64,000 nucleotides of DNA, taken from Sulfuritalea sp. (GTDB taxonomy: Bacteria > Pseudomonadota > Gammaproteobacteria > Burkholderiales > Rhodocyclaceae). Below are positions 3,742 through 17,514 of the stretch, piece by piece; the first letter of the stretch is position 1, and the number at the start of each line of letters is the position of its first letter. The DNA is taken from the NCBI GenBank assembly GCA_022842325.1, contig JALHPU010000001.1:144934-208933 (forward strand), given 5' to 3'. Below the pieces are notes generated by a model, which was given only the letters and a program-made list of their open reading frames with translations, did not search any database and was not told where the DNA came from. Position numbers and translations under genes: made by a program.

Positions 3742-4584
3742 TCAGCCGGCCTGGTACAGCAGCCGGCGCTCTTCCGCCTGCAGCGCGAGCTTGACTTCTT
3801 CGAGCACGGCGCCGACGTCGGCGATGCGATGCTCGACCTCGATGCGGCCGGTGAGTTCGCTGTCCACGGTGAGGCTGCCGGCCTGGTAGAGCTTCCAGAT
3901 TTCCTTGCCATAGTCGCGCTCCAGCAGTTCCGGCGCGAAACGGCCGAAGTAGCTGGCGAGGTTGGCGACGTCGCGCTCCAGCATGGCGCCGGCGCTGCTG
4001 TTGCCGGCGGCGTCGACCGCCTGCGGCAGGTCGATGATCACCGGCCCGTCGCTGCCGACCAGGATGTTGTACTCGGAGAGGTCGCCATGGATGATCCCGG
4101 CGCCGAGCATGCGCACCACCTGTCGCAGCAGTCCTGCATGGAACTCCAGGGCCAGTTCGGCGGAGAGTTCGATGTCGTTGAGGCGCGGCGCCGGCTGGCC
4201 GTCGGCATCGGTCACCAGCTCCATCAGCAGCACGCCCTCGTGACAGAGGTAGGGCTGCGGCACCGCCACCCCGGCGGCGGCAAGGCGATACAGGGCGTCG
4301 ACTTCGGCGCTTTGCCAGGCCTCTTCCTGCATCTGACGCCCGTAGCGCGAGCCCTTGTCCATGGCCCGCGCCTGCCGGCTATTCTTGGTCTTGCGGCCTT
4401 CCTGGTAGGACACGGCCTTGCGGAAGCTGCGCTGCGTGGCGTCCTTGTACACCTTGGCGCAGCGGATGTGCTCGCCGCAGCGCACGATATACACGGTCGC
4501 TTCCTTGCCGCTCATCAACTGGCGCAGCACTTCATCGACCAGGCCTTCGCTGACCAGCGGCTGCAGTCGTTTTGGCGTCTTCAC
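3742..4584 (-). CDS. RIO1-family atypical serine kinase/ATPase (bacterial PA4780-like)
   Basis: KEATVYIV..RCAKVYK..HGDLSEYNILV..IIDLPQAV motifs. Confidence 0.7.
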   Translation of the reverse strand: MKTPKRLQPLVSEGLVDEVLRQLMSGKEATVYIVRCGEHIRCAKVYKDATQRSFRKAVSYQEGRKTKNSRQARAMDKGSRYGRQMQEEAWQSAEVDALYRLAAAGVAVPQPYLCHEGVLLMELVTDADGQPAPRLNDIELSAELALEFHAGLLRQVVRMLGAGIIHGDLSEYNILVGSDGPVIIDLPQAVDAAGNSSAGAMLERDVANLASYFGRFAPELLERDYGKEIWKLYQAGSLTVDSELTGRIEVEHRIADVGAVLEEVKLALQAEERRLLYQAG

Positions 4585-4594
4585 GGCGGCGCGC

Positions 4595-6040
4595 TCACTC
4601 GGCGCGGTCCTGCAGCAAATGCACCTTGACCCGCTTGCCCTTGACCGTCCCCGCCGACAGCTTGCGCACCGCGTCGCGGGCGATGCTGCGCTCGACGGCG
4701 ACGTAGGTGCTGGTATCGGTGACGTTGATCTTGCCGATCTGTTCCTTGCTGAAACCGGCGTCGCCGGTCAGCGCGCCCAGCACGTCGCCGGGGCGGATCT
4801 TTTCCTTGCGTCCGCCGAGGATCAGCAGGGTCGCCATCGGCGGTTGCAGGGGCTTGCCGGACGTCGCCTCGAGTTCGCTCAGGGAGTGCCACTCGATCTC
4901 GTGACCGAGGGCCTTCTCGATGTTGTCCACGCGCGTCATCTGGTTGCCGCTGACCAGGCTGAAGGCCCAGCCCGCCTGATCCACGCGCCCGGTGCGGCCG
5001 ATGCGATGCACATGCACCTCGGTGTCCGGCGTCACGTCAACATTGATCACGGCTTCGAGCTGGTCGATGTCGAGGCCGCGCGCGGCGACGTCGGTGGCGA
5101 CCAGTACCGAGCAGCTGCGGTTGGCGAACTGGATCAGCACCTGGTCGCGCTCGCGCTGTTCCAGTTCGCCATGCAGGGCCAGGGCGACGAAGCCCTCGGC
5201 GCGCAGCACCTGCAGCAGCTCGCGGCATTGCTGCCGGGTGTTGCAGAAGGCCAGCGTGCTGACCGGCCGGTAGTGCTTGAGCAACAGGCCGACGGCCGCC
5301 AGCTTCTGCTCGGACTCCACCTCATAGAAGCGCTGGCGGATCTTGCCCGCCTCGTGCTGCTCGGTCAGCGTGATGCGCTGCGGCTGACGCAGGAAAGCCC
5401 GGCTCAGGCCGGCGATGCTTTCGGGATAAGTGGCGGAGAACAACAGCGTCTGCCGTTGCTTCGGGCAGGCCTTGGCGACGAAGGCGATGTCGTCGTAGAA
5501 GCCCATGTCCAGCATACGGTCGGCCTCGTCCAGCACTAGGGTATCCAGCGCCGACAGGTCGAGGCTTTCGCGCTGCAGGTGATCCATGATGCGTCCCGGC
5601 GTGCCGACCACGACATGGGCGCCGTGCTCGAGACTGGAAATCTGCGGCCGCATCTGGCTGCCGCCGCACAGGGTCAGCACCTTGATGTTGTCGGCGCCGC
5701 GCGCCAGGCGACGGATTTCCTGGGTCACCTGGTCGGCCAGTTCGCGCGTCGGGCACAGCACCAAGGCCTGCACCGCGAAGCGGCGCGGATTGAGTCTGGC
5801 CAGCAGGCTCAGGGCGAAGGCGGCGGTCTTGCCGCTGCCGGTCTTGGCCTGCGCGATCAGGTCATGGCCGGCCAGGGCCAGCGGCAGGCTGGCGGCCTGG
5901 ATCGGCGTCATCTGCCGGTAACCGAGCTGTTCGAGGTTGACCAGTGTCGCCGGAGCCAGCGGCAGGGAGGCGAACGACAGGCTGGGAGCGGCTGCGGGTG
6001 CGCCTTCGGCGGCGACTGCGGGGGTAGGATTCATGCGCAA
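4595..6040 (-). CDS. dbpA: ATP-dependent DEAD-box RNA helicase DbpA (with C-terminal DbpA RNA-binding domain)
   Basis: Q-motif, AKTGSGKT, DEADRMLDMGF, SAT, HRIGRTGR motifs plus C-terminal RRM-like domain. Confidence 0.85.
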   Translation of the reverse strand: MRMNPTPAVAAEGAPAAAPSLSFASLPLAPATLVNLEQLGYRQMTPIQAASLPLALAGHDLIAQAKTGSGKTAAFALSLLARLNPRRFAVQALVLCPTRELADQVTQEIRRLARGADNIKVLTLCGGSQMRPQISSLEHGAHVVVGTPGRIMDHLQRESLDLSALDTLVLDEADRMLDMGFYDDIAFVAKACPKQRQTLLFSATYPESIAGLSRAFLRQPQRITLTEQHEAGKIRQRFYEVESEQKLAAVGLLLKHYRPVSTLAFCNTRQQCRELLQVLRAEGFVALALHGELEQRERDQVLIQFANRSCSVLVATDVAARGLDIDQLEAVINVDVTPDTEVHVHRIGRTGRVDQAGWAFSLVSGNQMTRVDNIEKALGHEIEWHSLSELEATSGKPLQPPMATLLILGGRKEKIRPGDVLGALTGDAGFSKEQIGKINVTDTSTYVAVERSIARDAVRKLSAGTVKGKRVKVHLLQDRAE

Positions 6041-6075
6041 TTATACGTGGCCGTGGCGCCCGCGGCGGCATGCAG

Positions 6076-6200
6076 GGCCAACTTCAGTCGGCCAGGGGTG
6101 GATGGCGGTGTAGGGCCGACTTCAGTCGGCCAGAGGTGGCTGGCGGACTGAAGTCCGCCCATGGAGGTGAAGCTCCTGTAAGGCCGGCTTCAGCCGGCCA
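6076..6200. repeat. Cluster of four REP-like 18-bp palindromes (GGCNRRCTKMAGYYNGCC) in the dbpA-paaE intergenic gap
   Basis: Perfect hairpins at 6076-6093, 6114-6131, 6142-6159 and 6183-6200; the first two sit in a 33-bp tandem direct repeat. Confidence 0.6.
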
Positions 6201-6208
6201 TGACCATG

Positions 6209-7294
6209 TCAGCGTTCGTCGAAAGACAGCACCACGCGCTCGGTCAGCGGATGGGCCTGGCAGGCAAGGACGAAGCCGTTGGCGACCTCGACCTTGTCCA
6301 GCGCGAAGTTGCGCTCCATGCGCACCTGTCCCTCCATCACCTTGCAGCGGCAGGTACCGCACACGCCCGAGGTGCAGGAGAAGGGCACTTCCAGCCCGGC
6401 CGCCGAGGCGGCGTCGAGGATGCTCGGCTGGTCCTTGCGGAAGTCGATTTCGCGCCGCATGCCGTCGCGGATGATGACCACCTTGGCCTGCTCGGCGTCG
6501 CCCGGCAGCGCCTCGTGCACCACCGCACCCACCGGTGCACCGGCCGGCAGCGCGACACCGAAGCGTTCGATGTGGATCGCGGCCTCCGGCACGCCGGCCG
6601 CCAGCAGCGCGGCCTCGGCCTCGTCGTTCATCTGGAACGGGCCGCAGACATACACATGGTCGATAGTCGGCGCTGGCACCACGGTGGCAAGGAACTCGCC
6701 GATCTTGTCGCGGTTCATCACGCCCATGTTGAGCGGTGAATCGGTCGGCTCGTCGGAAAACACGTGCTGCAGGGCCAGGCGCGTCATGTAGCGGTTCTTC
6801 AGGTCTTCCAGTTCTTCCTTGAACATGGTCGAACGGAGCATGCGGTTGCCGTAGATCAGCGTGAAGCGGCTGAGCGGTTCGCGCGCCAGCACGGTTTTCA
6901 TGATCGAAAGTATCGGCGTGATGCCGCTACCGCCGGCGATGCCGACGTGGTGGCGCCTGGCCGTCGGCTCGATGGGAACGAAGAATCGGCCCTGCGGCGC
7001 CATGGCGCTGATGCGGTCGCCGGGACGCAGGTGTTCGTTGATCCAGTTGGAGAAGGCCCCGCCCTTGACGCGGCGCACGCCGACGCGCAGCTCGCCGTCA
7101 TCGACGCCGGCGCAGATCGAATACGAGCGGCGCAAGTCCTGGCCGTCGATGCTGGCGCGCAGCGTCAGGTACTGACCCTGGGTGAAGCCGAACACCGCGC
7201 GCAACTCGGGCGGCACGTCGAAGGAAACGATGGAGGCCTCGGCGGTATCGGGCTCGATGCTGCGCACGCGCAGGTCGTGGAAGAGTGTGCTCAT
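6209..7294 (-). CDS. paaE: Phenylacetyl-CoA 1,2-epoxidase reductase subunit PaaE (FNR-like with C-terminal 2Fe-2S ferredoxin)
   Basis: FAD/NAD-binding fold plus CxxxxCxxC...C ferredoxin tail; last gene of the paaABCDE block. Confidence 0.85.
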   Translation of the reverse strand: MSTLFHDLRVRSIEPDTAEASIVSFDVPPELRAVFGFTQGQYLTLRASIDGQDLRRSYSICAGVDDGELRVGVRRVKGGAFSNWINEHLRPGDRISAMAPQGRFFVPIEPTARRHHVGIAGGSGITPILSIMKTVLAREPLSRFTLIYGNRMLRSTMFKEELEDLKNRYMTRLALQHVFSDEPTDSPLNMGVMNRDKIGEFLATVVPAPTIDHVYVCGPFQMNDEAEAALLAAGVPEAAIHIERFGVALPAGAPVGAVVHEALPGDAEQAKVVIIRDGMRREIDFRKDQPSILDAASAAGLEVPFSCTSGVCGTCRCKVMEGQVRMERNFALDKVEVANGFVLACQAHPLTERVVLSFDER

Positions 7295-7806
7295 ATCGGC
7301 TTGAAGTGTTCGAAGGGCTCGCGGCAGTCGAGGCAGCGGTGCAGCGACTTGCAGGCGGTGGAACCAAAGGCGGACAGGCGCTCGGTATGCGCACTGCCGC
7401 AGCGCGGACAGGGCACTGCGGCCTGGCGACGACCGACGATGCGGATCGGAACCGCGCCATCGGCGAGTGCCGGACCGGGCGGCGCGATGCCGTATTCCAG
7501 CAACTTGCGCTTGCCCTCGGCGCTGATCCAGTCGCTGCTCCAGGCCGGCGCCCGGCGCATCGTGACCCGCGCCGGGCCGAGGCCGGCGGCATCGATGGCA
7601 TCGAGCACGCTGCGGGTGATGACTTCGGTCGCCGGGCAGCCGCTGTAGGTCGGCGTCAGCACGATCTCCAGGCCGTCGTCATGTTCGATGACTTCGCGCA
7701 CCAGGCCCAGGTCGACCACGGACAGCGCCGGTACCTCGGGATCGAGCACCTCATTGAGCGCGGCCCAGGCGCTGTCCGTGCGCGAAGCGACGGCGACCGT
7801 CACCAC
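7291..7806 (-). CDS. paaD: Phenylacetyl-CoA epoxidase subunit PaaD
   Basis: Conserved LSVVDLGLVREV and C-terminal CPRCGS...CKSLHRCLDC motifs; 4-bp overlap with paaE. Confidence 0.8.
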   Translation of the reverse strand: MVTVAVASRTDSAWAALNEVLDPEVPALSVVDLGLVREVIEHDDGLEIVLTPTYSGCPATEVITRSVLDAIDAAGLGPARVTMRRAPAWSSDWISAEGKRKLLEYGIAPPGPALADGAVPIRIVGRRQAAVPCPRCGSAHTERLSAFGSTACKSLHRCLDCREPFEHFKPI

Positions 7807-8573
7807 GCGCCACCGGGATAAGTGCGCTGCAGGTATTGCATCTCGACCAGCAGGTAACCCATGTGCTCGCTGTGCAGGCCGCGCTTGCCGCTGCTGCGGA
7901 AAGCCGCTTCGCCGGGAATCGTCAGCTTTGCCTCGCCGAGGATTTCGCTCATCTCGGCCAGCCAGGGCTCGCGCAGTTGCGACCAGGCCGGGCCGAGGCC
8001 GGCGGCGTTGGCGGCGGCATCCACCGCGTCGTCCTCGAACAGCTCGGGCGTATAGAGCCAGACCTGGGCTAGCGCGGCTTCGCTGCGACGGCGTGATTCA
8101 TCGGTGCCGTCGCCGAGGCGCACCGCCCAGTCGGCGGCGTGCTGCTGGTGGTAGCGGGCTTCCTTGAGGGCCTTGCCGGCGATGGCGGCGAGTTCGCTAT
8201 CGCTGGAATCGCGCAGCCGTTCCCACATCAGCTTGAGCCAGGTGGCGAGCACGGTGTTGCGCAGCACGGTGAAGGCAAAGTCGCCGCGAGGCAGTTCGGC
8301 CAGCGTCGGATTGCGGTAGTCGATTTCGTCGCGCAGGAAGGCGAGCTGATCTTCGTCATAACCCTCGCCGCTGCGCTGGCCCGCCAGCGTGAGCAGCGCG
8401 CGCGACTGGCCGATCAGGTCGAGCGCCATGTTGGACAGCGCGATGTCCTCTTCGAGGATGGGCGCGTGGCCGCACCACTCGCCGAGGCGCTGGCCCAAGA
8501 TCAGGCAGGTGTCGGAGAGGCGCAGCAGGTACTGAAATTCGGGTGCGGCAGGAATGCGGATGGAAGCGACCAT
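7800..8573 (-). CDS. paaC: Phenylacetyl-CoA epoxidase structural subunit PaaC
   Basis: Ferritin-like PaaC signature (LRLSDTCLILGQRLGEWCGHAPILEEDIALSNMALD). Confidence 0.85.
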   Translation of the reverse strand: MVASIRIPAAPEFQYLLRLSDTCLILGQRLGEWCGHAPILEEDIALSNMALDLIGQSRALLTLAGQRSGEGYDEDQLAFLRDEIDYRNPTLAELPRGDFAFTVLRNTVLATWLKLMWERLRDSSDSELAAIAGKALKEARYHQQHAADWAVRLGDGTDESRRRSEAALAQVWLYTPELFEDDAVDAAANAAGLGPAWSQLREPWLAEMSEILGEAKLTIPGEAAFRSSGKRGLHSEHMGYLLVEMQYLQRTYPGGAW

Positions 8574-8584
8574 TCAGATCTCCA

Positions 8585-8875
8585 TTACATGTGGTCTACC
8601 GAATCCGGCAGCTTGTAGAAGGTGGGATGGCGATACACCTTGTCCTCGGCGGGATCGAAGTACATGTCCTTGTCGCTCGGGTCACTGGCAACGATCTGGT
8701 CGGAACGCACCACCCAGACGCTGCTGCCCTCCTGGCGCCGGGTATACACGTCGCGCGCCATCTGCACCGCCATCTTCGGGTCGGCGGCGTGCAGGCTGCC
8801 GCAATGCTTGTGGTCGAGGCCGGCCTTGGTGCGGACGAAGACTTCCCACAAGGGCCATTCGTTTTCAGGTTTCAT
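8585..8875 (-). CDS. paaB: Phenylacetyl-CoA epoxidase subunit PaaB
   Basis: 96-aa PaaB signature WPLWEVFVR...YTRR. Confidence 0.9.
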
Positions 8876-9876
8876 GCTGCCTCCTTCAATTCAACTTTAC
8901 GGGCGTGGGCCAGCGCGGCTTCACGCACCCATTCGCCCTCTTCCCAGGCCTTGACCCGCGCCGCCAGGCGTTCGCGGTTGCAGGGGCCGTCGCCGCCGAC
9001 CACTCGCCAGAATTCGGACCAGTCGATCACGCCGTAGTCCCAGTGCTGGGTTTCCTCGTTCCAGCGCAGGTCCGGATCGGGGAAAGAAACGCCGAGCACT
9101 TCGGCCTGCTGTATGGCGGCGTCGACGAACTTCTGGCGCAGCGTGTCGTTGCTGACGCGCTTGATGCCCCAGCGCATGCCCTGCGCCGAATTCGGGCTCT
9201 GGTCGTCGGGCGGGCCGAACATCATCAGGCAGGGCCACCACCAGCGATTCACCGCTTCCTGCACCATCGCGCGCTGCGCGTCGGTGCCGTCCTTCATCAT
9301 CACCAGCAGGCTGTCGAAGCCCTGGCGCTGGTGGAAGCTTTCCTCGCGGCAGATACGCACCATGGCGCGCGCGTAGGGCGCGAACGAGCAGCGGCAGATC
9401 GGCACCTGGTTCATGATCGCCGCGCCGTCGACCAGCCAGCCGATGGCGCCGACGTCGGCCCAGGTCAGGGTCGGGTAGTTGAAGATCGAGCTGTACTTGG
9501 CCTTGCCCCTATGCAGCGCGTCGAGCATCTGGTCGCGGCTGGTACCCAGCGTCTCGGCCGCGGCGTAGAGGTAGAGGCCGTGGCCGCCCTCGTCCTGCAC
9601 CTTGGCCAGCAGGATGGACTTGCGCTTCAGCGTCGGTGCGCGGGTGATCCAGTTGCCCTCTGGCAGCATGCCGACGATCTCGGAATGCGCGTGCTGGCTG
9701 ATCTGGCGCAGCAGCGTCTTGCGGTAGTTTTCCGGCATCCAGTCTTTGGCTTCGATGAAGTCGCCGGCGTCGATGCGATTGTCGAAGCGCTGCTGCAGTT
9801 GCGCTTCCTCGGCCGTGCGCAAGGCCGGCTTGTCGCCGCCTTCGTCGCGCATGGTGTCCATGGCTTGGGTGTACAT
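8872..9876 (-). CDS. paaA: Phenylacetyl-CoA epoxidase catalytic subunit PaaA
   Basis: Di-iron oxygenase motifs [26 protein letters not shown]; start taken at MYTQAMDTM (ATG 9876) inside the longer ORF 8872..9933. Confidence 0.88.
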
Positions 9877-10090
9877 GGCTCGGTCCTTTCTGCTGCTGTA
9901 GGGGTCGTTCGCGGCACATTCCGGCGCCGCCAATGTGATACATTTTTTAATAACTCATTAAATGATAGTGTATCACTTAAATCTTGTCAATCGAAACTTC
10001 AAGCATTTGGCCGGCAGAAAACCCTGCTCGACCAAGGGCAAGCATTGACTGTACGCCGAATTGAGAAGGGCGCCGCTCAGGCGCCCTCGG

Positions 10091-10981
10091 TCAGGCCGGG
10101 AGCGGCGTGACGCGCTCGTGGTAGCGCGCGCGGTAAAGCAGGCGACGCTTTTGCGGCGTCTCGGTGAAGCCGGAACGGTCGTGCAACACGTTGTTGCAGG
10201 CCAGGCCCATGCCCGGCTCCAGGCGCCCGTGCAGGGTCCACGGCGTCGGCGTCGCCAGCAGCCTGGCCAATGCCGCGATGGCGGCCTGCGTCGCGGAGTC
10301 ATTGCGCCATTCGATGCTGATGCTGCGTGCCGTGTAGCGCATGTGCAGGAAGCCCTGACCATCGACCGAAAACACCGGGCCGGGCTGCGCGGCGCGGGCG
10401 ACGCCGGTGTCGTCCAGACGCGGCGGGATGGTCATGGCGTCGTCGCGCGACAGGGCGCGGATGAAGTCCGGATTCTCGTCGCGCAGCAGGATGTAGGCGA
10501 TCTCGTGGTCGAGCAGCTGGTTCTCGCCGCCGCTCGCGGCGCTTTCCACGCAATGCAGGACCATGCCGCGCACGGTGCGCTCGGGGACGTTGTAGTAACC
10601 GTCGGTGTGCCACTTGATCGGCTTGTCGGTGTAGGGAATGAATTCCTTGCGCTCGCCGCGCTCCTCGGCGCCGCGCACCGAGATCGGCGAGATCGCGTCG
10701 TCGTCGGTCAGCCAGTGGCTGTCGAGATGGACCAGCCCGAGCTGCCGGCCCAGCCCGCGCGGAATTTCCTTGTCCGCGTCGCCGACGGTATTGCTGGTGT
10801 AGATCGCCATGTTGGCGATGGCGCAGCGCTGCAGCAGGGCATTGCGTTCGGCCTCGCTCAGGGCGCGCGGATCGTCGAGCGCGACCACGATATCCTCGAT
10901 GCGGCGCGGCGCGCTGTCTAGCTTGTGCTCGCGCCAGCGCTGGTAGCTGGCGTTGTCGGCAAGATCGAAGGGGCTGGACAT
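10091..10981 (-). CDS. TauD/TfdA-family 2-oxoglutarate/Fe(II)-dependent dioxygenase-like protein
   Basis: WHTDGYY (HxD) motif and C-terminal His-containing region in a double-stranded beta-helix-sized protein. Confidence 0.55.
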   Translation of the reverse strand: MSSPFDLADNASYQRWREHKLDSAPRRIEDIVVALDDPRALSEAERNALLQRCAIANMAIYTSNTVGDADKEIPRGLGRQLGLVHLDSHWLTDDDAISPISVRGAEERGERKEFIPYTDKPIKWHTDGYYNVPERTVRGMVLHCVESAASGGENQLLDHEIAYILLRDENPDFIRALSRDDAMTIPPRLDDTGVARAAQPGPVFSVDGQGFLHMRYTARSISIEWRNDSATQAAIAALARLLATPTPWTLHGRLEPGMGLACNNVLHDRSGFTETPQKRRLLYRARYHERVTPLPA

Positions 10982-10991
10982 CGGGGTGCCC

Positions 10992-11603
10992 CTAGTCGCC
11001 TGTCGTTGCGCCGTGGCGCGGGCGCCGACTCTTGGCCTCGCCGGGATGAAACAGGCCGGCCAGTGTCTTGTCCAGCGCCTTGATGGCCTCCGGCGATTCG
11101 ATTTCCATGACCTGATCGACGGCCCAGAGTTGGTCCTTTTCCGGCAACACCTCTTTCAGGCAGGCCGCAAAGCAGCGGCGGAAGCCGAAGTCCGGACCCT
11201 CCTCGGTGTAGCCGTGATCGGCGTATTCCGCACCCCGCTGGTTGAAGAGGTCGAGCACGTGCTGCTGCACCTTGCCCGGCGCCACGTCGTAGAGCAGCAT
11301 GTCGCGGTTGTCGTCGATCGCGGCGGCGATGCGCTGCGCCAGCGCGGTGGTGAATTCCAGGCGCTGCTCCGGCGTCAGTTCGCGGTAGGCGATGCGATCC
11401 GCCGCCAGCGCCAGGAACACCATGAACTCACAGACGAAATCGAAATAGGCGCTGCCCAGGTCGATGTCGTACTCGGCCTCGCGCATGCGCTTGATCGAAT
11501 CGATCGCCAGTTTCCAGGCCAACATCGCAATCACGCCGGCGAGTTCGGTCATCGACCGCGGCTTGCCGCCGGCGTGGAAACTGGATCGTATGCGGATGGC
11601 CAT
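10992..11603 (-). CDS. Hypothetical protein (203 aa; a start at MTELAGV... about 11552 is also possible)
   Basis: Continuous ORF with host-like codon usage; no family recognised. Confidence 0.4.
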   Translation of the reverse strand: MAIRIRSSFHAGGKPRSMTELAGVIAMLAWKLAIDSIKRMREAEYDIDLGSAYFDFVCEFMVFLALAADRIAYRELTPEQRLEFTTALAQRIAAAIDDNRDMLLYDVAPGKVQQHVLDLFNQRGAEYADHGYTEEGPDFGFRRCFAACLKEVLPEKDQLWAVDQVMEIESPEAIKALDKTLAGLFHPGEAKSRRPRHGATTGD

Positions 11604-11658
11604 GAATTACACCGTTGAGGCGCCCTCAAACATACGAGCGCAGCGAGCTAACTGGTTA

Positions 11659-11742
11659 CCCCCGCCCCGGGGCGGGGGCCAGGGGGTGGGGGGCGATTAA
11701 TTGCCCTTGCCGAAGGCAAGGGCGGGTACGTCAGTACCCGCC
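11659..11742 (-). terminator. Three consecutive GC-rich hairpins downstream of the dsrC-like gene; the middle one (11703-11723) is followed by AATTAAT on the transcribed strand, so a likely intrinsic terminator
   Basis: CCCCCGCCCCGGGGCGGGGG; GCCCTTGCCgaaGGCAAGGGC; GGCGGGTACgtcaGTACCCGCC. Confidence 0.35.
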
Positions 11743-12069
11743 TTTGCCTAAGGGCATCGGCAGGCCACCGACCTTGCAGCCTTCCTTGGCCGCGCCGCCA
11801 TCCGGGAACAGTTCGAACAGCAGCGCGCTGTCGGCCTCGGGCATGTCGCCTTCTTCCTGCAGGCCCTTGATCAGGTTGCGCATGTTCGGCGTGTGGCCGT
11901 CTTCCTTGTATTTCTCGCGCAGAAAATTGACGACCTTCCAGTGCTGATCGGTCATGGTGATGCCGCAGGCGGCGGAAATCACGTGCACCGCCTCCTCGCT
12001 GAAATCCGGCTCCAGCAGGTAGCCGTATTCGTTCACTTCCTTTTCGACGCCGTTGATGGTGTAGCTCAT
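11731..12069 (-). CDS. DsrC/TusE-family sulfur-relay protein paralog that lacks the penultimate (CysA) cysteine
   Basis: Full-length DsrC fold (TDQHWKVVNFLREKY...) but C-terminus ...CKVGGLPMPLGKGGY versus ...CKIAGLPKPTGCV in the cluster dsrC; strong AAGGAG RBS. Confidence 0.75.
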   Translation of the reverse strand: MSYTINGVEKEVNEYGYLLEPDFSEEAVHVISAACGITMTDQHWKVVNFLREKYKEDGHTPNMRNLIKGLQEEGDMPEADSALLFELFPDGGAAKEGCKVGGLPMPLGKGGY

Positions 12070-12098
12070 GGGGATCTCCTTTTTCGGGCTAACTTGAA

Positions 12099-12581
12099 TT
12101 ATTTTCGACGCAGGTAAAACTCATGGACCCCGCGTCCGGACTCATGGGTAAACAGCAGGTCCGCCGCGCCGGCCTTGGCCCAGGACGTGATGTCGTCGGC
12201 CGAGCCGGGGCAATCGCTGACCAGTTGCAGCACTTCGCCGGCCTTCATGCCGTCGAGCAGTTTCTTGGCCTGGACGATGGGGCCGGGGCAGGACACGCCG
12301 CGCATGTCCAGCGTGACGTGGGCGACCGGCGTAGCGTTGGCGCCGCCGGCGCGCTGGATCATGTAGGCGCTCTTGTGGCCGCCCAGCTTTTCGCTGCCAA
12401 GCACCACGTTGCCGGTGACCTTGGCCCAGGCGAACAGGTCGTCGGCGGTGCCGGGGCAATCGGAAATCAGGCGCAGGGTCTGGCCCGGCTGCAGGTCGTC
12501 GATCAGTTTCTTGGCGCCGAGCAGCGGCGCCGGACAGGGCAGGCCGCAGACATCGAGCGTAACGGTGGCAACTTCGGACAT
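12099..12581 (-). CDS. Tandem two-domain TusA-like sulfurtransferase
   Basis: Two TusA repeats, each with a CPxP active-site motif (LDVCGLPCPAP and LDMRGVSCPGP); GAGGAG RBS. Confidence 0.8.
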   Translation of the reverse strand: MSEVATVTLDVCGLPCPAPLLGAKKLIDDLQPGQTLRLISDCPGTADDLFAWAKVTGNVVLGSEKLGGHKSAYMIQRAGGANATPVAHVTLDMRGVSCPGPIVQAKKLLDGMKAGEVLQLVSDCPGSADDITSWAKAGAADLLFTHESGRGVHEFYLRRK

Positions 12582-12614
12582 GAGGCGTCTCCTCGTTTGA
12601 GTAGTAGGTAGTGT

Positions 12615-13211
12615 TTAGTCGCCGACAGCGACGACCGATTTATGGGGTATGAACAGCCCGCAGCCCAGCGCGCGATGCGTACCCAGGCCGGATTCCTGCA
12701 CGGCCAGCGATTCGGCGGCAGCCAGTCCGTGCAGCATCAGGCTGAAGCCGCGCACCACGCCCTGCGCCAGGCGCAGCTCCTGCGCCTTGCCGCTGATAAG
12801 CTGCGGCGCGAGGCCACGCTCTGCCAGCAGCGCGCGGCAGCGGGCAAGAAATTCGATTTCGTCGTCGGCACCGACGCTGACGAGATGCGAATAGACCACG
12901 CCGCGCGCCGGATACAACCGACGCACGCTGCACTTGCCCAGCGTCAGCCAACTGCCATCGAGGTCGAGCCGGGTGCCGGCCAAAGAGTCGGCGCTGGCGC
13001 TACGGTGAATCGGCAGGCGCAAAGCCAGGCGGCTGCGGCGGCCGACGAAGCACACGCCGTTGTTGCCGTGCGCCACGCCGGACAACGGCAGGATGCCGGC
13101 GTCCGCTTCGTCGTCGAACCAGGGCAGCGCACGCCGCACCGCCAGCGACAAGGCATCGGCGTGGTCGTCGCGGAAGCTTCCCTCCTCGAGCGAAAACACC
13201 ACGTCCACCAT
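12615..13211 (-). CDS. Orphan Cas6e (CasE/Cse3)-like RAMP protein, about 198 aa
   Basis: C-terminal glycine-rich loop GLGTHRALGCGLF matches the Cas6 G(phi)GxxxxxG(phi)G motif and E. coli CasE GIGPAKSMGCGLL; N-terminal His plus ALPWF resembles the CasE catalytic His region; start taken at MVDVVFSL (ATG 13211) instead of the ORF-track start 13292. Confidence 0.45.
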   Translation of the reverse strand: MVDVVFSLEEGSFRDDHADALSLAVRRALPWFDDEADAGILPLSGVAHGNNGVCFVGRRSRLALRLPIHRSASADSLAGTRLDLDGSWLTLGKCSVRRLYPARGVVYSHLVSVGADDEIEFLARCRALLAERGLAPQLISGKAQELRLAQGVVRGFSLMLHGLAAAESLAVQESGLGTHRALGCGLFIPHKSVVAVGD

Positions 13212-13240
13212 AACGGTCGACGCCTCGTCCGGCGAATAAT

Positions 13241-13480
13241 TCAATCGGCCTCTCCTTGTGCCTCGGCGCCGCCCGGCTGCGTCGCGGCCCAATCGCTCAG
13301 CACCTTGCCCCAGCGGGCCGCCGTGGCCGGATCGATGTCGAAAATGGTGAAGCGGCTGCGTTCGCGAATCCGCGTGCGCAGCAATGGCATGCCGCCGGCC
13401 TCGAAGATGAACTGCTGCAGTTCGATCTCCTGGTTGCCGATGGGCACGCGAAACTTGTCGAGCGAGGTGACGGTATCCAA
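13241..13480 (-). CDS. Hypothetical 79-aa protein, first gene of the divergent operon
   Basis: AGAGGA RBS; ORF ends 29 nt before the Cas6e-like start. Confidence 0.4.
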   Translation of the reverse strand: MDTVTSLDKFRVPIGNQEIELQQFIFEAGGMPLLRTRIRERSRFTIFDIDPATAARWGKVLSDWAATQPGGAEAQGEAD

Positions 13481-13568
13481 AACTATTCCTCTATGTGGGG
13501 GCGGACTATGGCATCAGCGACGGGCATCAGCCATCACCGCGTGGGAGTGCAAGCATATAACCCTTTGG

Positions 13569-13588
13569 GGTAGGTCCATTTACCTACC
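13569..13588. promoter_or_regulatory. Perfect inverted repeat GGTAGGTccatttACCTACC in the divergent dsrA / upstream-operon promoter region (candidate operator)
   Basis: 7-bp arms with a 6-bp spacer, about 80 bp upstream of the dsrA start. Confidence 0.25.
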
Positions 13589-13666
13589 GGGAGTATGGTT
13601 TGTGCACCGCACACATCTCTATGATCGCTCCATCGAGTTTCACCCCCGACCACGAGGAGATAAACC

Positions 13667-14962
13667 ATGGCCAAGCCCATGCACCCAACACCGAACCTGG
13701 ATCAACTGGAAAGCGGCCCCTGGCCGAGTTTCGTCACCGGCCTCAAGCGCCTGGCCAAGGACAAGGACTATGTGGTCGACATTCTCGGCCACCTCGAGCA
13801 TTCCTACCAGACCCGCAAGGGCTACTGGAAGGGCGGCACGGTGGGTGTGCGCGGCTACGGCGGCGGCATCATCCCGCGTTTCACCGAGATCAAGGATGAG
13901 GCCGGCAACCCGGTTTTCAAGGACGCTGCCGAATTCCACACCCTGCGCGTCATGCCGCCCCCCGGCATGCACTACAACACCGCGACGCTGCGCCAGTTCT
14001 GCGACATCTGGGAAAAGCACGGCTCCGGCCTGATCGCCTTCCACGGCCAGTCGGGCGACATCATGTTCCAGGGCGCCACCACGGAAAACGTGCAGAAGGC
14101 CTTTGACGAAATCAACGACATGGGCTTCGACCTCGGCGGCGCCGGCCCGGCCGTGCGCACCTCGATGTCCTGCGTCGGCGCCTCGCGCTGCGAGCAGTCC
14201 TGCTACGACGAAGCCAAGGCACACCGCGAAGTGCTCAACACCTTCCTCGACGACATCCACCGTCCGGCCCTGCCCTACAAGTTCAAGTTCAAGTTCTCCG
14301 GCTGCCCCAACGACTGCATGAACTCCATCCAGCGTTCGGACATGGCCGTGATCGGCACCTGGCGCGACAACATCCGCACCGACGAAGCGCTGGCGAAGAA
14401 GTGGTTCGCCAAGCACGGCATGAACGAACTGGTGAACGACGTCGTCGCCCGCTGCCCGACCAAGGCCATCCAGATCAAGGAAATCAAGGATGTACGCAAG
14501 GCTGACAACTTCAGCAGCGTCGCCGTCAATGACACCCAGGCACTGGAAATCGACAACAAGGACTGCGTGCGCTGCATGCACTGCATCAACGTCATGACCG
14601 GCGCCCTGGCGACCGGCACCGACAAGGGTGCGACGATCCTGATGGGCGGCAAGCGCACCCTGAAGATCGGCGACCTGATGGGCACCGTGGTGGTTCCCTT
14701 CATGCCCCTGAAGACCGATGAGGACTACGAGAAGCTGGTCGAACTGGGCCAGAAGACCATCGACTTCTTCGCCGAGAACGCACTGGAGCACGAGCGCACC
14801 GGCGAAATGATCGAACGCATCGGCCTGGTCAACTTCCTCGAAGGCATCGAGGTTGATATCGACGCCAACATGGTCTCGACGCCACGCATGAATCCCTACG
14901 TCAATACCATTGGCTGGGACGACGAAGTCGCCAAGATCAACGCCAAAAAAGCTGCCGCCTGA
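13667..14962 (+). CDS. dsrA: Dissimilatory sulfite reductase alpha subunit DsrA (siroheme and [4Fe-4S])
   Basis: Siroheme-binding Cys motifs (CVGASRCEQSC, CPNDC), ferredoxin insert (CVRCMHC); GAGGAG RBS. Confidence 0.95.
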   Translation: MAKPMHPTPNLDQLESGPWPSFVTGLKRLAKDKDYVVDILGHLEHSYQTRKGYWKGGTVGVRGYGGGIIPRFTEIKDEAGNPVFKDAAEFHTLRVMPPPGMHYNTATLRQFCDIWEKHGSGLIAFHGQSGDIMFQGATTENVQKAFDEINDMGFDLGGAGPAVRTSMSCVGASRCEQSCYDEAKAHREVLNTFLDDIHRPALPYKFKFKFSGCPNDCMNSIQRSDMAVIGTWRDNIRTDEALAKKWFAKHGMNELVNDVVARCPTKAIQIKEIKDVRKADNFSSVAVNDTQALEIDNKDCVRCMHCINVMTGALATGTDKGATILMGGKRTLKIGDLMGTVVVPFMPLKTDEDYEKLVELGQKTIDFFAENALEHERTGEMIERIGLVNFLEGIEVDIDANMVSTPRMNPYVNTIGWDDEVAKINAKKAAA

Positions 14963-17135: not shown

Positions 17136-17179
17136 TCGCCAACTTTCCATTACCCCGCACCACACCAAGGAGACATTCA

Positions 17180-17514
17180 TGTCCAGCATCGAAGTCAACG
17201 GCAAGTCCTACGAAACCGACGAAGAAGGCTATCTGGTCAACCTCGCCGAATGGAACGAGGACGTCGGTACCTACCTCGCGCAAACGGAAAGCGTCGAGAT
17301 GACCGACCAGCACTGGGAAGTCATCAACTTCCTGCGCGACTACTACAACGAATTCCAGATTGCCCCGGCCGTGCGCGTGCTGACCAAGGCCATCGGCAAG
17401 AAGCTCGGCCCGGAAAAGGGCACCAGCCAATACCTGTACGACCTGTTCCCCTACGGCCCGGCCAAACAGGCGTGCAAGATCGCCGGCCTGCCGAAGCCGA
17501 CCGGCTGCGTCTGA
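17180..17514 (+). CDS. dsrC: DsrC with both conserved C-terminal cysteines (...CKIAGLPKPTGCV)
   Basis: Canonical DsrC C-terminus; start at MSSIEVNGK (ATG 17180, GGAG RBS) inside ORF 16942..17514. Confidence 0.93.

Follow-up and report, generated by a model that had tools for sequence, protein, structure and literature searches.

How sulfur enters the cytoplasmic pathway of reverse dissimilatory sulfite reductase (rDsr) in chemotrophic sulfur oxidizers and how this entry is metered are still open questions, as is what the numerous DsrC paralogs do. We analyzed a locus beside dsrA in a 64,000-nucleotide stretch of a Sulfuritalea sp. contig, JALHPU010000001.1 (the window; all positions refer to the whole stretch unless a locus is named), where a gene for two fused TusA domains (tandem TusA, or TusA2) adjoins a gene for a DsrC-family protein (DsrC-like). 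The nearest public loci are from Sulfuritalea metagenome-assembled genomes (MAGs), and the host is a Sulfuritalea-type betaproteobacterium. The locus supplies a well-delimited and conserved group of candidates in a compact genetic arrangement, namely a fused two-cysteine TusA, a DsrC look-alike in which the reactive cysteine has become an invariant lysine, and the long-unexplained DsrQ, and it is present in cultured Sulfuritalea hydrogenivorans, whose strain sk43H encodes a protein 91% identical to tandem TusA. Each of these components varies on a known type (a two-cysteine TusA in fused form, an RspA-type paralog with a distinctive GKGGY end, and dsrQ), and the operon that unites them, together with its solo Cas6 homolog, is undescribed as far as our literature search reached.

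The operon divergent from dsrA

Judged from sequence and gene order, the two genes are the third and fourth of a conserved, predicted six-gene accessory operon that is transcribed divergently from dsrA and runs in the order DUF6967, a solo Cas6/Cmx6 homolog, tandem TusA, DsrC-like (optional), x203 and DsrQ (TauD-like) (Table 1). The tandem TusA and DsrC-like genes are separated by 29 nt and are probably co-transcribed. An earlier interpretation made from the letters of the window (the sequence-only reading) had suggested that their products form a dedicated donor-acceptor pair, a view that we do not uphold: the pair sits within a six-gene unit, which that reading had overlooked, and tandem TusA also occurs without the DsrC-like gene and without dsr genes.

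Table 1 Features of the dsrA-divergent operon and its surroundings in the window.
Feature	Position	Strand	Remarks
Terminator-like hairpin with T tail	10022..10044	-	After the dsrQ stop; marks the end of the unit
DsrQ, TauD-family Fe(II)/2-oxoglutarate dioxygenase	10091..10981	-	Last operon gene; Pfam TauD 53.6 bits (cut-off 27)
x203	10992..11603	-	203 aa, all-helical, conserved; no family match
GC-rich spacer between DsrC-like and x203	11604..11730	-	Three hairpins, T tail absent; fold -68.8 kcal/mol, z = -2.7
DsrC-like paralog (fits RspA type)	11731..12069	-	112 aa; Pfam DsrC; C-terminal arm GGLPMPLGKGGY
DsrC-like Lys109 (CysA position)	codon 11743-11745	-	
DsrC-like Cys98 (CysB position)	codon 11776-11778	-	
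Tandem TusA (TusA2)	12099..12581	-	160 aa; single continuous open reading frame, two Pfam TusA matches
Tandem TusA C-domain	residues 81-160 = 12099-12341	-	
Tandem TusA N-domain	residues 1-80 = 12342-12581	-	
Solo Cas6/Cmx6-family protein	12615..13211	-	198 aa from ATG; reading frame open to 13292; homologs annotated at 197-210 aa
DUF6967 protein	13241..13480	-	79 aa; first operon gene; Pfam PF22295 E 2.7e-30
dsrA/DUF6967 divergent intergenic region	13481..13666		Conserved blocks in 17-lineage alignment
Canonical dsrC	17179..17514	+	Within dsrABEFHCMKL...OPN (13667 onward); Pfam DsrC E 5.5e-48 (full profile), TIGR03342 168 bits

To place the operon in other genomes, one genome per species was scanned and the best 80 species-level loci were taken. 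Nearly all of those with enough flanking sequence have dsrK-M-C-E-B-A followed by the divergent genes DUF6967, Cas6-like, TusA2, DsrC-like, x203 and TauD, and essentially every relative examined keeps the pair divergent from dsrA, which was the check that the sequence-only reading had called for. The core of the operon is retained where TusA2 identity has fallen to 49-54% (L081-L083 and L091). At L091 (54%), DUF6967, Cas6, TusA2, DsrC-like (with Val at the CysB position) and x203 adjoin dsrA, and at the three Burkholderiaceae loci L081-L083 (49%), DUF6967, Cas6, TusA2, x203 and TauD adjoin dsrA and the DsrC-like gene is absent. In this latter lineage a gene for a YeeE/YedE-family (PF04143) sulfur-compound transporter lies directly after dsrQ and closes the operon (L081 10182-11288; L082 10185-11291). 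Pairwise comparison of the window genes with nine loci gave dN/dS ratios of 0.04-0.47, placing all six operon genes under purifying selection.

Within the unit, the TauD gene is the only one with a terminator-like site behind it. We considered whether the hairpins clustered at 11604-11730 might be a repeated element or a terminator and rejected both, the cluster being unique in the window, free of a T tail and absent from other lineages; in L011, L031 and L032 the spacer is missing and the DsrC-like and x203 genes stand 8-10 nt apart. The divergent intergenic region carries blocks conserved across the 17 lineages (ACTATGGCA, CCATCACCG, CATATAAC, CCTTTCGGGTAGGT...ACCT and GTATGG), which are probably shared promoter and operator elements. 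A structured RNA in this region that could serve as a target of the Cas6 homolog was also considered and rejected, since only sequence blocks are conserved, RNAalifold gives no consensus fold beyond a 3-bp stem and no covariation, and an Rfam scan over 9800-14000 returned nothing credible.

Tandem TusA and the DsrC-like paralog

The tandem TusA gene consists of 160 codons with no internal stop, preceded by a GAGGAG Shine-Dalgarno sequence 7 nt upstream, and Pfam TusA (PF01206) covers its product in two stretches (E 2.5e-35; 120.6 bits, with the cut-off at 28.6), confirming the earlier claim that this one open reading frame (ORF) encodes two complete TusA domains with CPxP cysteines. The two motifs are CGLPCPAP (Cys16, CPAP) and VSCPGP (Cys98, CPGP). 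Each half, the two being 43% identical to one another, has a second cysteine (C42 and C124) within an SDCPG motif, and all four cysteines are essentially invariant, being kept in 93-95 of 95 sequences (Cys16 in 93 and Cys98 in all 95). Both cysteines of each half align with those of E. coli YedF (1JE3: CPYP...VSDCPQS), and their spacing of 26 residues is equal to that of C13 and C39 in E. coli YeeD, while E. coli TusA has an Asp at the site of the second cysteine. By sequence, therefore, each half is assigned to the YedF/YeeD-type two-cysteine domains. On the NCBIfam equivalog models the protein scored best with YedF (74.4 bits, cut-off 79), followed by TusA (63.4, cut-off 78) and YeeD (45, cut-off 147.5), so that YedF is the nearest type but these cut-offs do not class the protein as an ortholog of any of the three. 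Its gene shows dN/dS of 0.04-0.23.

The AlphaFold2 model of tandem TusA (pLDDT 84, pTM 0.73) contains two beta-alpha-beta-alpha-beta-beta domains, each with the two-layer alpha/beta sandwich fold of the TusA type. A Foldseek search of the PDB returned E. coli TusA (3LVJ_C, TM 0.85, one domain) and YeeD (8K1R), and because these matches are all single-domain, no tandem TusA structure has been solved; nor did we find any description of tandem TusA proteins in the searchable literature, in agreement with the claim that they are uncharacterized. The further claim that double TusA architectures are rare holds in a relative sense only: the protein has matches in more than 1,500 clusters at 90% identity, and full-length tandem proteins form ~20 clusters at 50% identity. 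Nearly all of the best 120 homologs listed are full-length tandem proteins with a constant length of 160 aa, and among the distant tandem proteins of the 50% clusters the N-half cysteine is often lost. A plasmid search with tandem TusA gave zero matches.

Compared with E. coli YedF and YeeD (TsuB; 1JE3 and 8K1R), the tandem TusA halves share the fold, the CPxP cysteine and the SDCP cysteine 26 residues further on. They differ in being two domains of one chain, in scoring under the equivalog cut-offs, and in context, because in most genomes the gene is tied to dsrA and not to a transporter gene, a YeeE/YedE-family gene being part of the operon in one lineage. In YeeD, which binds and decomposes thiosulfate and may dimerize transiently, both C13 and C39 are required in vivo (PMC11073785). 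With Allochromatium vinosum TusA, which acts in the rhd-tusA-dsrE2 relay to DsrEFH and DsrC, tandem TusA has in common the family, the intact CPxP cysteine and the genomic tie to rDsr (PMC6397845); in contrast to it, tandem TusA is a fused pair, carries a second cysteine at the site that is Asp in TusA, and is neighbored by Cas6-like, DUF6967, x203 and DsrQ genes instead of rhodanese and DsrE2 genes.

Several other arrangements of TusA domains were seen in passing. In L052 and L067 (Methyloversatilis-like; 7100-9150), a tandem TusA 64-66% identical to that of the window is found where dsr and Cas6 genes are absent; its neighbor is a divergent methyltransferase-like gene, and L067 also has a DsbB-like membrane protein with a CPYC motif. 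In two unrelated lineages (L085 8001-8833, L086, L087 8001-8805 and L088), dsr genes are absent from the vicinity and a DUF3579 gene comes after a tandem TusA gene of 42-44% identity, which appears to be a second conserved pairing. The representative library also includes 'poly-TusA' proteins, which are 700-824 aa long and contain 4-6 separate stretches resembling TusA (P0376, P0391, P0392, P0403 and P0419).

The DsrC-like gene is preceded by an AAGGAG Shine-Dalgarno sequence, and its product, ending in CKVGGLPMPLGKGGY before the stop, matches Pfam DsrC (PF04358; E 2.4e-27, 95.9 bits against 24.9) over profile positions 2-104 of 107 and TIGR03342 above its cut-off (78.6 bits against 53.5). In the alignment with A. 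vinosum DsrC (1YX3), which extends through the arm to Gly108, Cys98 falls at the CysB position, Lys109 follows directly after the last aligned residue, where DsrC carries CysA, and the chain is two residues longer than that of DsrC. The genuine dsrC of the window lies 5.1 kb from the DsrC-like gene and encodes a protein with both cysteines (terminus CKIAGLPKPTGCV) to which the paralog is 38% identical. The sequence-only reading was thus right about the distant, complete dsrC and about the missing CysA. Authentic DsrC strictly conserves its penultimate cysteine, the sole sulfur binder and DsrEFH contact; in A. vinosum, CysA and not CysB was needed for both sulfur binding and DsrEFH interaction (PMC3397948). 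Because this residue is replaced by Lys109, the paralog is neither DsrC nor TusE, and the TusE model NF008562 indeed gives 59.4 bits against a cut-off of 191. Nor does the arm fit the DiSCo motif for the DsrC C-terminus, AGLPKPTG(not N)CA with one mismatch tolerated (PMC8477390), from which it deviates at more than one position. With CysA absent, no CysA/CysB trisulfide cycle is expected to be possible, as had been proposed.

As a DsrC-family protein without CysA, which is how PMC9371685 uses the name, the paralog fits the 'RspA' type, a loosely defined group of 'regulatory sulfur-related proteins' (Venceslau et al. 2014, cited in PMC9371685 and PMC8477390). CysA-less DsrC paralogs encoded close to tusA, dsrE2, dsrQ and dsrAB in Methylovirgula were read as probable regulatory RspA proteins (PMC9371685), and the present protein resembles one of them, MHY1_00075. 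It shares with DsrC and the RspA paralogs the fold, the arm scaffold (GLPxPxG), the absence of CysA (RspA) and a place beside sulfur-trafficking or dsr genes, and is set apart from DsrC by the lysine at the CysA site, the variable CysB, the departure from the DiSCo motif and a distinct, invariant GK[GA]GY end. This terminus is found in 118 of the best 120 homologs listed, all of unchanged length, and dN/dS of the gene is 0.04-0.38. Across 75 species-level orthologs the TPNxRN motif, LFP, AK and the arm GLxxPxGK[GA]GY are invariant, the swinging arm being the most conserved part of the protein, and all 75 are acidic (pI 4.4-5.1; net charge of the window protein -9).

The earlier statement that the paralog keeps CysB is correct for the window, where Cys98 is present, and fails for the subfamily: the residue is Cys in 45 orthologs, Val in 27 and Ala in 3, and the non-Cys states include the most divergent lineages (L077-L080 and L091). 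With CysB replaced in 40% of the species, the most distant ones among them, a cysteine-based acceptor role cannot define the family, and given also the invariant lysine at the CysA site, the paralog is unlikely to be a thiol acceptor. The proposal of a fused double TusA feeding a CysB-keeping acceptor consequently finds no support, as the operon, too, exists without the DsrC-like gene. A non-canonical cysteine, Cys35, accompanies Cys98 in 38 of 45 orthologs and is found in 0 of the 30 that lack Cys98, which suggests a clade-specific cysteine pair and not a canonical CysB role.

The Cas6 homolog, DUF6967, x203 and DsrQ

The second gene of the operon encodes a full-length member of the Cas6/Cmx6 family, G-rich loop included (PF09559 E 2e-46; TIGR02807 128 bits against 98.85; PADLOC Cas6 E 8e-47), whose best PDB match, the type I-B Cas6 8FCJ_B, aligns over its full length. 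Compared with the CRISPR RNA endonuclease Cas6/Cmx6 of type I-MYXAN, it scores above trusted cut-offs and keeps the loop (GLGxxRxxGCGxFxP), which is invariant and common to dsr-linked and CRISPR-linked members. The two groups differ in context and sequence. In more than 80 loci the dsr-linked gene stands between dsrA/DUF6967 and TusA2, without a CRISPR array or cas neighbors, and a search of the 64-kb window revealed no CRISPR array, whereas the CRISPR-linked proteins, from full cas operons on cyanobacterial plasmids, are only 23-31% identical to the dsr-linked ones. The N-terminal Asp-His, which would hold the candidate catalytic histidine, is found in both groups but is Asp-Tyr in 2 of 6 aligned dsr-linked sequences (L081 and L091), and the pI of the dsr-linked proteins is 6.3-9.7 versus ~9.4 in CRISPR-linked members. 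A defense-system reading was rejected, as PADLOC matched Cas6 models only and none of the other five proteins. Public annotation nevertheless labels the homologs automatically as 'type I-MYXAN CRISPR-associated protein Cas6/Cmx6', so that their presence in a sulfur-oxidation operon raises an issue of annotation quality and possibly one of Cas exaptation. The closest plasmid-borne relative (31% identity) is on Gloeobacter morelensis plasmid pGMOR1 (L096 5974-9237), outside any cas operon, and the genes after it are hypothetical ones, one of the PAPS-reductase family and one for a cupin.

The DUF6967 gene lies between dsrA and the Cas6-like gene at every locus that has both flanks, and our literature search found nothing on DUF6967 or on a Cas6/Cmx6 homolog in dsr loci. 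For the x203 protein, searches of Pfam, NCBIfam, PADLOC and the PDB gave no match, and a profile built from 12 sequences did not change this. It is recognizable down to 35% identity (L081 and L091), has dN/dS of 0.06-0.34, and its single-sequence AlphaFold2 model contains seven helices at a pLDDT of only 60.

The last gene, a TauD-family gene at the end of the dsrA-divergent operon, answers to dsrQ, a name that Lenk et al. 2012 (cited in PMC7596348 and PMC9371685) gave to tauD-like genes running divergently from dsr clusters. Among PDB entries it is matched best by TmpA (6NPB), and the two align at the HTD motif (HxD) and the distal His; its closest characterized relatives are the trimethylammonium hydroxylases TmpA, BBOX and TMLH. 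A dsrQ gene was noted in most aerobic chemotrophic sulfur oxidizers, and its speculated role is the release of sulfite from sulfonates (PMC7596348; PMC9371685). Like the published dsrQ (PMC7596348), the gene lies upstream of dsrA in divergent orientation, in a chemotrophic sulfur oxidizer that is facultatively aerobic; unlike in that account, DsrQ turns out here to belong to a larger operon, as the last of six genes, the other five of which we found without a description in the literature.

Possible roles of the pair

We tentatively favor the reading, drawn from the sequences and their conservation, that tandem TusA deals with sulfane sulfur or thiosulfate where sulfur enters rDsr and that the DsrC-like protein imitates DsrC without being reactive, or acts as a modulator. 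What the analysis shows is that the genes are genuine and under purifying selection, together with their domain make-up, cysteine conservation and synteny with its variants; the biochemical steps are all inferred and could be as follows. Tandem TusA would be the constant sulfur-handling component of the dsrA-coupled unit; its CPxP cysteines would bind sulfane sulfur or thiosulfonate, the nearby SDCPG cysteine may serve as a second or resolving thiol, given that E. coli YeeD needs both of its cysteines, and the sulfur would pass to the cytoplasmic relay from DsrEFH to DsrC and DsrAB. The DsrC-like protein would be unable to carry sulfur, because Lys occupies the CysA site and the arm cysteine is often absent; instead, it may dock by its arm on a DsrC-binding partner (DsrAB, DsrK, DsrEFH or tandem TusA) and modulate flux or expression, as a lineage-specific accessory and not an obligatory acceptor for tandem TusA. 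Several points weigh against this reading. Real DsrC binds DsrEFH only weakly after removal of CysA (PMC3397948), no YeeE/YedE-type transporter gene was found within ~8 kb at Rhodocyclales loci, and the model leaves the roles of the Cas6-like, DUF6967 and x203 proteins unexplained. In addition, tandem TusA occurs outside dsr loci, beside a DUF3579, a DsbB-like or methyltransferase gene, or housekeeping genes, and its chemistry may therefore be more general than the feeding of rDsr.

A different role, which we regard as unlikely but worth weighing, is that the DsrC-like protein is a helix-turn-helix DNA-binding regulator of the divergent dsrA/DUF6967 promoters, which is the classical RspA idea, and tandem TusA a sensor of sulfur status. 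The gene lies near the divergent intergenic region with its strongly conserved blocks, and A. vinosum DsrC reportedly binds dsr promoter DNA. CysA-less DsrC paralogs have also been termed probable regulators (PMC9371685). However, the strong acidity of all 75 orthologs argues against direct DNA binding, the most conserved part of the protein is the swinging arm, which serves protein docking and not DNA binding, and L081 keeps the intergenic blocks without having a DsrC-like gene.

Equally improbable in our judgment is a sulfonate or sulfite module, in which DsrQ would free sulfite oxygenolytically from an organosulfonate, and tandem TusA and the DsrC-like protein would bind the resulting sulfite or thiosulfonate or channel it, linking it to DsrAB or protecting against sulfite. 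It would agree with the published speculation on DsrQ, with the intact HxD...H iron site of this TauD-family protein, and with the ability of TusA-family cysteines to hold thiosulfonate groups that is described in PMC4175335 and PMC11073785. The nearest characterized TauD relatives, however, act on trimethylammonium compounds and not on sulfonates, and the unit has no sulfonate transporter or regulator. Moreover, the reaction needs O2, whereas Sulfuritalea bacteria also oxidize sulfur anaerobically.

We give rather little weight to the idea that the operon is a regulatory and maturation module, in which a Cas6-family RNA binder domesticated from CRISPR would control dsr mRNA post-transcriptionally together with DUF6967, and sulfur loading would be sensed by the four-cysteine tandem TusA and relayed through the cysteine-less DsrC mimic. 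If true, Cas6 would here have been put to use in energy metabolism independently of CRISPR.

The relay proposed in the sequence-only reading, in which tandem TusA would persulfurate CysB of the DsrC-like protein in a dedicated thiol branch upstream of rDsr, seems very unlikely to us. It draws on the presence of DsrC-like Cys98 in the window and close relatives, the intact active-site cysteines of both TusA halves and the adjacency of the two genes. On the other hand, 30 of 75 species, the deepest lineages included, have Val or Ala in place of CysB; where the cysteine is present, it tracks the non-canonical Cys35, suggesting a clade-specific pair over a CysB function; TusA2 and the remaining operon exist in L081-L083 without the DsrC-like gene; and CysB of real DsrC neither binds sulfur nor contacts DsrEFH (PMC3397948).

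No more credible is that Lys109 is modified, for example by DsrQ hydroxylation or by acylation, or that the terminal Tyr is removed to expose Gly-Gly, either of which would create a new kind of swinging-arm carrier. The lysine at the CysA position and the invariant GK[GA]GY end would suit it, as would a neighboring dioxygenase nearest to enzymes for lysine-derived or trimethylammonium substrates. Yet the unit encodes no ligase, E1-like enzyme or protease, and we downgraded the hydroxylation by DsrQ because DsrQ and x203 persist in a lineage without the DsrC-like gene. Lastly, there is next to no chance of an artifact, whether a frameshifted, truncated copy of dsrC or two tusA genes split by an unnoticed stop and misread as one, the two outcomes named in the sequence-only reading as fatal to it, since the ORFs are continuous, the lengths and termini (GK[GA]GY for the DsrC-like protein) are constant across the best homologs listed, which come from hundreds of independent assemblies, the genes are under purifying selection, and a direct read of the sequence shows no alternative frame after the arm that encodes Cys-X-stop.

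Three minor observations concern other sequence around these loci. At L081, from a MAG (GCA_041396625.1), dsrA and dsrB are called as several short ORFs (4400-6332) and are intact in the near-identical L082, probably reflecting assembly frameshifts. In the window, a 38-bp unit is repeated in tandem at 6074-6146 (1.9 copies, 91% matches). Immediately beyond the dsrQ terminator lies a paaA-like gene for a phenylacetyl-CoA epoxidase subunit (8872-9990, minus strand; TIGR02156 E 4e-157), metabolically unrelated to the dsr-divergent unit, with a sigma-70-like promoter at 9990-9962 that matches at 11 of 12 positions.

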